A stretch of DNA of 64,000 nucleotides. Origin: Enterobacteria phage vB_EcoM_IME340. Below the pieces are notes generated by a model. The model had not been told where the DNA came from, made no database searches, and was given only the letters and a program-made list of their open reading frames with translations. How positions within the stretch are numbered: the stretch's first letter is position 1; the number at the start of each line of letters is the position of its first letter. Where the stretch lies: sequence record MH051916. One strand, given 5' to 3'. Positions 8,027 through 10,517 of this stretch are shown here, in pieces. The position numbers and the translations under genes are program-made.

Positions 8027-8527
8027 ATGAATATATTTGAAATGTTACGTATAGATGAAGGTCTTAGACTTAAAATCTATAAAGACACCGAAGGCTATTA
8101 CACTATTGGCATTGGTCATTTGCTTACCAAAAGTCCATCACTTAGTGTTGCCAAATCTGAATTAGATAAAGCTATTGGACGTAATTGCAATGGTGTAATT
8201 ACAAAAGATGAGGCTGAAAAACTCTTCAATCAGGATGTTGATGCTGCTGTTCGCGGAATTCTGAGAAATGCTAAATTAAAACCAGTTTATGATTCTCTTG
8301 ATGCTGTTCGCCGCTGCGCATTGATTAATATGGTTTTCCAAATGGGAGAAACCGGCGTGGCAGGATTTACTAATTCTTTACGTATGCTCCAACAAAAACG
8401 CTGGGATGAAGCAGCAGTAAATCTAGCCCAATCTAAATGGTATCGTCAGACACCTAATCGCGCGAAACGCGTAATCTCAACATTTAAAACAGGAACTTGG
8501 AAAGCGTATATATATGAAAACATATAG
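8027..8527 (+). CDS. e: lysozyme (endolysin)
   Basis: [33 protein letters not shown].. is nearly identical to T4 lysozyme; C-terminus differs slightly. Confidence 0.95.
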
Positions 8528-8795
8528 TGAATTTTTATCAGAATCTATTCTTAACGAAGCTACTGACACATTTGCAACTAAGCTAGGTGCAGCTTTGGTT
8601 GAAGCTGAAAGTCTATTAGCACGTATTTCTGAACTTGCTAGTAAGATAGATACTCGCAAATTTGAACGTACCAGCGATATCGTTAAGCTTGAAGCCTTGT
8701 TGCGTATGTGCGATAAACCAGAAGAAATCGCTAAGAACGGCTCGCTAATGAAACAACGTCTTGAAAAATATATTTCAGGCGCTTCAGAAAAATAG
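8514..8795 (+). CDS. internal-protein-like protein ([12 protein letters not shown]-terminus)
   Basis: 93 aa ORF with capsid-targeting N-terminus, overlapping e 3' end. Confidence 0.6.
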
Positions 8796-8853
8796 TGTTT
8801 ACTTCCTCCAAGGACTTTGATACTATACATTCATCAACTACTTGGAGGAAATT

Positions 8854-9267
8854 ATGACTCGTATCAATTTAACACTTGTTTCTGAACTGACCGACCAACA
8901 TCTTATGGCTGAGTATCGTGAATTACCACGCGTATTTGGTGCAGTCCGTAAACATGTTCAAAACGGTAAACGTGTAAAGGATTTTAAAATCTCTCCAACA
9001 TTTATCTTAGGCACAGGTCACGTAACATTCTTTTATGACAAACTCGAATTTTTACGTTTACGTCAAATCGAGCTAATCGCTGAATGCTTGAAACGTGGTT
9101 TCAAAATCAAGGACACGACTGTCCAGGATATTTCCGACATCCCTGTCGAATTTCGTAATAATTATGTCCCGTCCGAAGCGTCCATTGCGATAAGTCAAGC
9201 TCGCTTAGATGAAAAAATTGCTCAACGCCCTACTTGGTACAAATACTATGGTAAATCAATTTACTAA
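8854..9267 (+). CDS. denV: endonuclease V (pyrimidine-dimer DNA glycosylase)
   Basis: [28 protein letters not shown].. matches remembered T4 DenV; SD GGAGGAAATT. Confidence 0.9.
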
Positions 9268-9273
9268 GGAAAA

Positions 9274-9534
9274 ATGAAAATGTATCAAGAATTTATCGCT
9301 GAAGCAGATGCCAAAGGCCCCAAATTTAAAGTTAAAGCTTTCGTTGGTGATGCCGAAGATTTTGGCTCATTAAAACGTAATGGGTATTTTTTCTTAGGTG
9401 GTGATGGTAAAGAAATCAACACCTATGCAAAACGTAGTGAAATTGCTTATGTTGCTGCAAGTCCTAAAGTAGATGTTGACGATATTGGATACGATTTTAA
9501 CAACTTCGGAATTATTTCTGGCGGTGAAGCTTAA
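9274..9534 (+). CDS. internal-protein-like protein (MKMYQEFIAEA N-terminus)
   Basis: 86 aa ORF with capsid-targeting N-terminus. Confidence 0.6.
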   Translation: MKMYQEFIAEADAKGPKFKVKAFVGDAEDFGSLKRNGYFFLGGDGKEINTYAKRSEIAYVAASPKVDVDDIGYDFNNFGIISGGEA

Positions 9535-9537
9535 ACG

Positions 9538-9570
9538 GTTTACGCTTAAGTATTAATATGGTATAATTAC
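9538..9570 (+). promoter_or_regulatory. sigma70-type early promoter
   Basis: GTTTAC 9538-9543, -10 TGGTATAAT ending 9568. Confidence 0.55.
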
Positions 9571-9597
9571 TCTATCAAAACAAACAAGGAAACAAAA

Positions 9598-9912
9598 ATG
9601 AAAACATATAAAGAATTTATTGCAGAATCCGCCAACCAACGCGTTGAAGGTGGTTATATTTGGATTGAACAAGTTGAGCCACCGAGCCGCACTTCTACAG
9701 GTAAATGGAAAATTACTGTTGATGGTCCTGGTGGTAAACGTAGGACTCTTAAAGAAATTAATGGGTACTATGAAGAAGCTCTTTCGGATGCAGGAACTTA
9801 CATGATGCAAATCATGATTAAAAACCCTGAAAACCGTTTTGCAGCTAAAGTCTTCCGACGCATCGGTAATAAACTTTATGACGCATACTCTAAAAACTTC
9901 CCTAAAGAATAA
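9598..9912 (+). CDS. internal-protein-like protein (MKTYKEFIAESA N-terminus)
   Basis: 104 aa ORF with capsid-targeting N-terminus. Confidence 0.6.
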   Translation: MKTYKEFIAESANQRVEGGYIWIEQVEPPSRTSTGKWKITVDGPGGKRRTLKEINGYYEEALSDAGTYMMQIMIKNPENRFAAKVFRRIGNKLYDAYSKNFPKE

Positions 9913-9938
9913 CATGAATTAAAACAATAGGAACAAAA

Positions 9939-10517
9939 ATGAAAACGTATCAAGAATTTATTGCTGAAGCTTCTGTAGTAAAGGCCAAAGGCATTAATAA
10001 GGACGAGTGGAACTATCGTGGTGGAAACGGCTTTGACCCTAAAACAGCCCCTATTGAACGATACTTAGCTACAAAAGCTTCCGATTTTAAAGCTTTCGCT
10101 TGGGAAGGACTTCGCTGGCGTACCGATTTAAATATTGAAGTTGACGGACTTAAATTTGCTCATATTGAAGATGTTGTTGCTAGTAACTTAGACGCAGCTT
10201 TTGTTAAAGCCGACAGTGATCTTCGTCGCTGGAATTTAAAACTGTTCTCTAAACAAAAAGGCCCGAAGTTTGTGCCTAAAGCCGGTAAATGGGTCATTGA
10301 TAATAAATTAGCTAAGGCTGTCAACTACGCTGGTCTTGAATTCGCCAAGCACAAATCATCATGGAAAGGTCTTGATGCAATGGCTTTCCGTAAAGAATTT
10401 GCCGATGTTATGGCTAAAGGCGGCTTTAAGGCAGAAATAGATACCTCTAAAGGTACGTTTAAGGACGCTAATGTTCAGTACGCTTACGCCGTTGCTAATG
10501 CAGCCCGTGGTAATTAA
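9939..10517 (+). CDS. internal-protein-like protein (MKTYQEFIAEA N-terminus), 192 aa
   Basis: N-terminus identical to the canonical T4 Ip targeting peptide. Confidence 0.65.
   Translation: MKTYQEFIAEASVVKAKGINKDEWNYRGGNGFDPKTAPIERYLATKASDFKAFAWEGLRWRTDLNIEVDGLKFAHIEDVVASNLDAAFVKADSDLRRWNLKLFSKQKGPKFVPKAGKWVIDNKLAKAVNYAGLEFAKHKSSWKGLDAMAFRKEFADVMAKGGFKAEIDTSKGTFKDANVQYAYAVANAARGN

Follow-up and report, generated by a model that had tools for sequence, protein, structure and literature searches.

The 64,000-nt stretch of the genome of Enterobacteria phage vB_EcoM_IME340 (MH051916) that was analysed here, called the window below, carries four small plus-strand open reading frames (ORFs 8514, 9274, 9598 and 9939, named by their first positions) between the lysozyme gene e and vs.8, as in T4, T2, PP01 and RB69. 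T-even phages have two polymorphic internal-protein (IP) loci that have long been known, and this cluster occupies the one next to e. Considering all the evidence, we think it very probable that it is a mosaic IP cluster whose products are packaged through a capsid-targeting sequence (CTS) and injected as anti-defence proteins. Assignment of the four ORFs as internal-protein genes is well supported by their sequences, because they combine a CTS, a protease motif, the locus and orthology to annotated Ip genes. Nothing in the window is new in kind: earlier publications cover the gene families and their leader, the locus and how recombination shuffles it, and also the anti-defence hypothesis.

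To characterize the four ORFs, we examined their N-termini. As the original prediction had proposed, all four open with the T4 capsid-targeting peptide, and the N-terminal residues and the leader DNA pattern agree on this. ORF 9274 starts MKMYQEFIAE↓A, ORF 9598 MKTYKEFIAE↓S and ORF 9939 MKTYQEFIAE↓A (arrows mark the predicted cut), and the leader of ORF 8514 ends FLSE↓S and is followed by a second candidate [I/L]-x-E site, SILNE↓A. The consensus of the T4 prohead protease is [L/I]-x-E with a small residue next. This motif closes the leader in four of four ORFs (FLSE↓S or LNE↓A, IAE↓A, IAE↓S and IAE↓A), so that on closer inspection the targeting peptide has a predicted cleavage site in every case. 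A degenerate DNA pattern for the leader gave eight matches in 64 kb, all of them at plus-strand ORF starts, and none in 100 shuffles. The CTS carriers in the window are the four cluster ORFs together with ORFs 1349, 1682 and 4248 (seven in total), plus a homologue of gene 61.1 at 54248. Since the CTS codons vary synonymously between copies (ACA/ACC/ACG, GAA/GAG, ATT/ATC/TTA), selection appears to act on the peptide itself and not just on the DNA. Distant homologues (P0015, P0009, P0002) also retain the leader. Beyond it the four proteins are mutually unrelated, as had been proposed: when the first 12 residues were removed, no BLASTP similarity among them was detected (best E 0.55). The 86-192 aa originally given for the mature regions are in fact the precursor lengths, and the predicted mature proteins span 76-182 aa.

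Orthology leads to the same assignment. ORFs 8514, 9274 and 9939 fall in PHROGs of internal head or virion proteins. ORF 9939 is a T4-type ipIII: 180 residues of the mature parts align at 95% aa identity (E 2e-131), the gene is 91.7% identical to that of T4 in nt sequence, and the profile match is to phrog_5341 (E 2e-117); the 95% aa identity to T4 IPIII holds over the full length, and both proteins have the same CTS and cleavage site. ORF 9598 shows 96% aa identity both to the PP01 protein annotated 'Ip10 internal head protein' and to RB69ORF124c, and 72% to the Ip10 homologues of SP18 and the VR phages (VR20/VR25). The Ip10 family is found in 188 phage records, and homologues of 53-57% identity lie beside the lysozyme gene in Enterobacter, Cronobacter and Kosakonia phages. 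ORF 9274 is 92% identical to RB69p125, annotated 'internal head protein', and its family comprises 215 records, with members of 62-70% identity in Salmonella and Shigella phages. ORF 8514 is at least 95% identical in 231 phage records and matches phrog_3499 'internal head protein' (E 1e-46). It shares this PHROG with Ip5, and identity to the listed Ip5 copies (T2, PP01, wV7) is 47-51% over 84 aa (90% of the ORF). The bimodal distribution of identities, and the position of one at the e locus and the other at the ipI locus, mark the two as distinct alleles. GenBank phage records already encode proteins 100% identical to the products of 8514, 9274 and 9598, and word-indexed homologue searches returned T4-like phage proteins only, some of them on contigs attributed to Enterobacteriaceae. 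Searches of Pfam, NCBIfam and PDB sequences with the ORFs gave nothing significant, and no likeness in sequence or fold to T4 IPI*, the GmrSD inhibitor, was found.

Codon changes were compared for three of the CTS-bearing genes. Between Ip10 (9598) and the PP01 copy, 29 synonymous and 3 non-synonymous changes were counted, which shows purifying selection on Ip10 at the codon level. ORF 9274 differs from RB69p125 by 7 non-synonymous and 3 synonymous changes in 86 codons, at most a hint of relaxed or diversifying selection, as these counts are far too small for a conclusion. ORF 1682, which is Ip7, carries 4 non-synonymous changes in 102 codons relative to T2 ip7.

Some apparent relatives were rejected. 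PHROG 2667 suggested a kinship between 9274 and Ip7 (1682), yet hhalign of the mature parts gave a probability of 0.1%, and the PHROG link is probably driven by the CTS. An exhaustive HMMER search with mature Ip10 found one phage orthologue (P0015) and otherwise giant repeat proteins; these (FG-GAP, filamin, RTX/CBM) were dismissed as relatives, since Pfam scans and pairwise BLAST showed that their scores are sums of weak repeat matches. Hints of CsgH or filamin in Ip10 (Pfam E 0.07; PDB E 0.1-0.8) were also set aside, because the AlphaFold2 (AF2) model is α/β and not an Ig-like sandwich.

We then asked how the cluster arose. Binned identity shows that 7523-8510 is 93.5% identical to T4 and that most of this stretch (nudE/e) is only 58-82% identical to RB69, whereas roughly 8400-9900 is 95-100% identical to RB69. 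Accordingly, denV of the window has 78.6% nt identity to T4 denV and 98-100% to RB69. T4-type sequence resumes at the ipIII leader. In three-way alignments the left junction maps to ~8420, some 100 nt short of the end of e, and the right junction to ~9925-9975, where the RB69 gene and T4 ipIII share an RBS and leader-coding stretch. Together, the binned identities and the resolved junctions indicate that the cluster is, as judged from alignment, a cassette exchange between genera and not a local gene expansion. The result is a mosaic: near its 3' end, e passes from a T4-type backbone (nudE and most of e) into an RB69-type cassette (IP, denV, IP, Ip10), which in turn gives way to T4-type ipIII within the leader/CTS-coding stretch. 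As the right crossover lies inside the 5' stretch shared by ip genes, that stretch appears to have served as the recombination joint. A right crossover in this conserved 5' module matches the recombinational shuffling model credited to Repoila et al. 1994. Repoila, Tétart, Bouet and Krisch (1994, EMBO J 13:4181) reportedly described the polymorphic internal-protein loci of T-even phages as two slots, 3' of e and 3' of 57B, with varying ORFs, a shared N-terminal leader and conserved upstream elements before some genes. The window is one more configuration of these loci, with nothing essential different.

Comparison across T-even phages, which had been proposed as a check, bears this out: T4, T2, PP01, RB69, W143 and Bas45 share the locus context. 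T4 has ipIII-ipII at this locus and ipI elsewhere, just as the original prediction stated, in the order e-ipIII-ipII-denV and with ipI next to 57B; its ipIII directly follows e, whereas that of the window follows denV and three other ip genes. RB69 resembles the window in the order e-IP-denV-IP-Ip10 (RB69p127, denV, RB69p125, ORF124c) and differs in its last gene, which is ORF123c and not a T4-type ipIII; the flanks of the window are likewise T4-type. Bas45 (PaulHMueller, BASEL collection) has the identical architecture (e, IP, denV, IP, Ip10, ipIII, vs.8), and so has W143, with ipII in addition. W143 carries ipII right after ipIII, and compared to it ~516 bp including ipII are gone between the ipIII hairpin and vs.8 (window 10518-10646); in Bas45, too, ipII is missing from the interval between ipIII and vs.8. 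Over the span from gene 1 to vs.8, CTS genes number three in T4, three in T2, four in PP01 and seven in both RB69 and the window. The set is therefore larger than and different from that of T4, as had been claimed, but no larger than that of RB69, and its 192-aa member is plain IPIII. The nearest records to the window are Tequatrovirus genomes, with at most 98.4% identity across 7500-11300, and in 64 phage records at least 80% of the 3.8-kb cluster segment is collinear at a single place.

The coordinates of the cluster, its signals and the CTS-bearing genes outside it are collected in the table.

Table. Positions in the window of the internal-protein cluster, associated signals and further leader-bearing ORFs
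Feature	Position	Strand	Remarks
Lysozyme gene e	8027..8527	+	166 aa; holds the left T4-type/RB69-type junction at ~8420
Internal-protein gene (ORF 8514)	8514..8795	+	93 aa; RB69p127 orthologue, Ip5 relative; pI 6.3 (near neutral)
denV (endonuclease V), RB69-type allele	8854..9267	+	inside the cassette; not an internal protein
Internal-protein gene (ORF 9274)	9274..9534	+	86 aa; RB69p125 orthologue; acidic, pI 4.9
Ip10 gene (ORF 9598)	9598..9912	+	104 aa; basic, pI 9.6
ipIII (Ip3), T4-type (ORF 9939)	9939..10517	+	192 aa; basic, pI about 9.6
Tandem T4 late-promoter motifs, exact (TATAAATA)	7993..8013 (at 7993, 8006)	+	just 5' of e
σ70/early-type promoter-like site	9539..9567	+	TTTACG-17-TATAAT with upstream TG; before the Ip10 gene
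G+C-rich hairpin, terminator-like	10520..10537	+	weak T tail; directly 3' of the ipIII stop codon
Internal-protein gene, ipI locus	1349..1621	+	90 aa; MKTFKEFINE↓A; phrog_7673 'internal head protein', E 1e-54; outside the cluster
Ip7 gene, ipI locus	1682..1990	+	102 aa; MKTFKEFINE↓A; phrog_2667; outside the cluster
CTS-bearing ORF between tRNA cluster and e.8	4248..4811	+	187 aa; MKTYAEFLTE↓A; phrog_2280 (unknown function); outside the cluster

Two small sequence changes near the left end of the cassette affect reading frames. In the window, the TATATATG run (8505-8527) has one TA more than its counterparts in W143 and RB69, which lengthens e by 4 codons (ending AYIYENI), and the overlap with ORF 8514 is 14 nt instead of 4. 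In RB69, the leader of RB69p127 is scrambled by a -1/+1 indel pair 22 nt apart (MKTYMNFYQNLSLNE↓A), while it is intact in ORF 8514. These indels lie at 1741-1790 of the compared RB69 stretch (NC_004928), aligned to window 8514-8560. Either the RB69p127 leader is really degenerate and has the second L-N-E site only, or the change is an old sequencing error.

How might these proteins work? In the mechanism we propose, the first ten residues (MKT/M-Y-x-E-F-[I/L]-x-E) would act as the capsid-targeting sequence and carry the precursor into the prohead, as in T4. The prohead protease gp21 would cut the leader off after [I/L]-x-E, and the mature protein would stay in the DNA-filled head and be injected with the genome. 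CTS-directed packaging and the view of IPs as diverse defence proteins have been described (PMC3012670), and the T4 CTS suffices to package even foreign proteins into T4 heads (PMC3012670). T4 IPI* follows the same delivery logic (CTS, processing, injection) and has a similar small size; its NMR structure has been solved. Phage P1 Dar (defence against restriction) proteins are likewise packaged in the head and injected against restriction (PMC12810830). They are large proteins of unrelated sequence with another packaging hierarchy, and are not known to use a CTS/gp21 system. For the three non-T4 proteins (8514, 9274, 9598), we infer packaging, processing and injection from the leader alone.

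T4 without ipIII cannot infect E. coli ECOR17, and IPIII supplied by the host rescues infection even when it is leaderless (PMC9391042). Ip1, Ip2 and Ip3 each block a different type IV restriction enzyme of the GmrSD family, with no cross-protection (Silas et al. 2025, PMC12373910), and the same study proposed that every protein of the two Ip loci targets variants of the GmrSD system (PMC12373910). By analogy with T4 Ip3, the type IV restriction system GmrS1/GmrSD2, which consists of two genes, should be inhibited by injected IPIII of the window. The anti-defence arsenal is the field's working model (Repoila 1994, Rao & Black 2010, Silas 2025; PMC3012670, PMC12373910). When the original prediction suggested such an arsenal it thus restated a published hypothesis, one with experimental backing for IPIII (the T4 allele) and with negative results for Ip4-10 against GmrSD variants. 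For the other three proteins we likewise infer anti-defence activity, and their most likely role would be to block, through binding, other nucleases or defence proteins with which the host first responds. More specifically, and only tentatively, they may be injected inhibitors of first-response defences other than GmrSD, and the injected repertoire may extend beyond the two Ip loci (4248, 61.1). Targets other than GmrSD are proposed because Ip4-10 hit no tested GmrSD variant and because the three differ much in charge and fold. Injected internal proteins act before any phage gene expression and thus would help decide which wild E. coli a T-even phage infects, a host-range role that matters for the choice of therapeutic phages. 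The families concerned are common: Ip10, RB69p125 and RB69p127/Ip5-like proteins occur in ~130-230 phage records each at a level of at least 95% identity (at least 90% for RB69p125). The practical value of the window is as a reminder of these three common families.

AF2 models built on shallow alignments were reasonably confident. The Ip10 model (pLDDT 84.3) has a leader helix followed by β-β-β-α-β-β, and that of ORF 9274 (pLDDT 82.6, two of five models good) is β-α-β-α-β-α-β. The spread of charge (pI 4.9, 6.3 and 9.6) and the small compact domains fit specific inhibitors better than DNA counterions, which is not proof.

Several observations weigh against the reading of the cluster as packaged, injected anti-defence proteins. 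The structure models yielded no informative fold relatives, and therefore no mechanism can be read from the folds. When Ip4-10 (including Ip10 and Ip5) were assayed against further GmrSD variants, no reproducible inhibition was seen (PMC12373910). In the literature we found no virion proteomics of the three non-T4 proteins, and the one T4-like virion proteome found, that of Yersinia phage fD1, is from a phage that carries Ip4 and lacks these genes. The window itself starts with gene 1, takes in the e, vs and regB region and reaches at least as far as the primase gene 61, and the head genes for gp21 and gp22 lie outside it. As for expression, no exact late motif directly precedes 9274, 9598 or 9939, and an early-type promoter-like site precedes 9598. 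The literature also yielded no test of the RB69p125 or RB69p127 families against defences, and the fD1 list is unspecific, since e, denV and nudE are also flagged there as particle-associated.

Near the cluster, exact late motifs occur nowhere but before e, where there are two (TATAAATA). In T4, too, e is preceded by these two motifs, and neither ipIII nor ipII has one directly in front of it. Because late motifs are thus found only before e in both phages, read-through from e is the likely late route in both, and by this analogy late expression of the cluster would most likely start from the two e promoters, with Ip10 having in addition its own early-type promoter-like site. Similar elements (GTTTAC ... 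TG-n-TACTAT) can be made out by eye before 1349 and 1682; the promoter scan reported a site before 1349 only (1284-1312) and not before 1682. A late-promoter scan that allowed one mismatch gave counts at chance level.

The same data bear on other explanations. Packaging could be real and the role unspecific, the non-T4 proteins being generic head filler or DNA counterions that aid condensation or ejection. Ip10 and IPIII are indeed basic, lysines of internal proteins contact DNA phosphates in the T4 literature (PMC3012670), and the lack of a target for Ip4-10 among GmrSD variants would suit such a role. However, the acidic 9274 product and the near-neutral 8514 product are a poor fit to charge neutralisation, the genes come and go as discrete cassettes between close relatives, which is the pattern of host-range accessory genes, and all three T4 IPs proved to be specific inhibitors. 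We consider this explanation unlikely. Somewhat less likely still is that the shared 5' segment is an expression or recombination module and that some of the proteins stay unpackaged and act only intracellularly after synthesis. The early-type promoter before 9598 and the similar elements before 1349 and 1682 would agree with this, as would the same N-terminus on the gene 61.1 homologue in the primase gene cluster, the crossover mapped inside the 5' segment, and the activity of Ip3 without CTS when supplied in the host. Yet the peptide is under selection, as the synonymous variation of its codons shows, no copy has lost the [I/L]-x-E site, which distant homologues retain as well, the T4 CTS is reported to be sufficient for packaging foreign proteins, and the late promoters of e probably read into the cluster.

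That the ORFs are chance frames, or that their N-terminal likeness is a coincidence, can be considered refuted. Their small size and the absence of Pfam, NCBIfam and PDB matches would be expected of such frames, but eight leader matches were found where none is expected, conserved orthologues number in the hundreds, the 29:3 ratio of synonymous to non-synonymous changes in Ip10 is that of a gene, and the AF2 models are confident. Taken together, injected anti-defence proteins of a mosaic IP locus remain the preferred explanation.

Further leader-bearing ORFs were seen outside the two classical loci. ORF 4248 is present in 163 phage records, and all annotated ones among those listed call it 'hypothetical' (RB14ncORF136c). 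A related ORF is present in the equivalent part of RB69, and PP01 carries at this position a different leader-bearing ORF of 157 aa. In Yersinia phage fD1 the matching position is occupied by a 157-aa ORF (g140), flagged as particle-associated in the unspecific proteome; this comparison is by position and not by sequence. Together, these observations suggest that internal-protein genes have a third slot, apart from the two classical Ip loci.

The 61.1 homologue (54248-54412, plus strand, 54 aa) lies between 61.2 and the primase gene 61 and starts MKTYKEFIKE↓D, a perfect CTS with I-x-E, followed by a low-complexity acidic and lysine-rich tail. It is conserved across 1227 T4-like phage records, phages of Klebsiella, Acinetobacter and Aeromonas among them, and several of the more distant listed matches align only from residue 4-10 onward. 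It is annotated 'hypothetical'; no listed record names it an internal protein, and the literature searched contained nothing about it.

In the first 11 kb the plus strand carries the end of gene 1, 57A, 57B, two small ORFs, ten tRNA genes and the 187-aa ORF, continuing with e.6 to e.3, nudE, e, ORF 8514, denV, ORFs 9274, 9598 and 9939 and vs.8. The tRNA cluster (2629-3456) holds ten genes (Gln, Leu, Gly, Pro, Ser, Thr, Met, Tyr, Asn, Arg) compared to eight in T4. No segB homing-endonuclease gene interrupts it, and its content is T2-like rather than T4-like.

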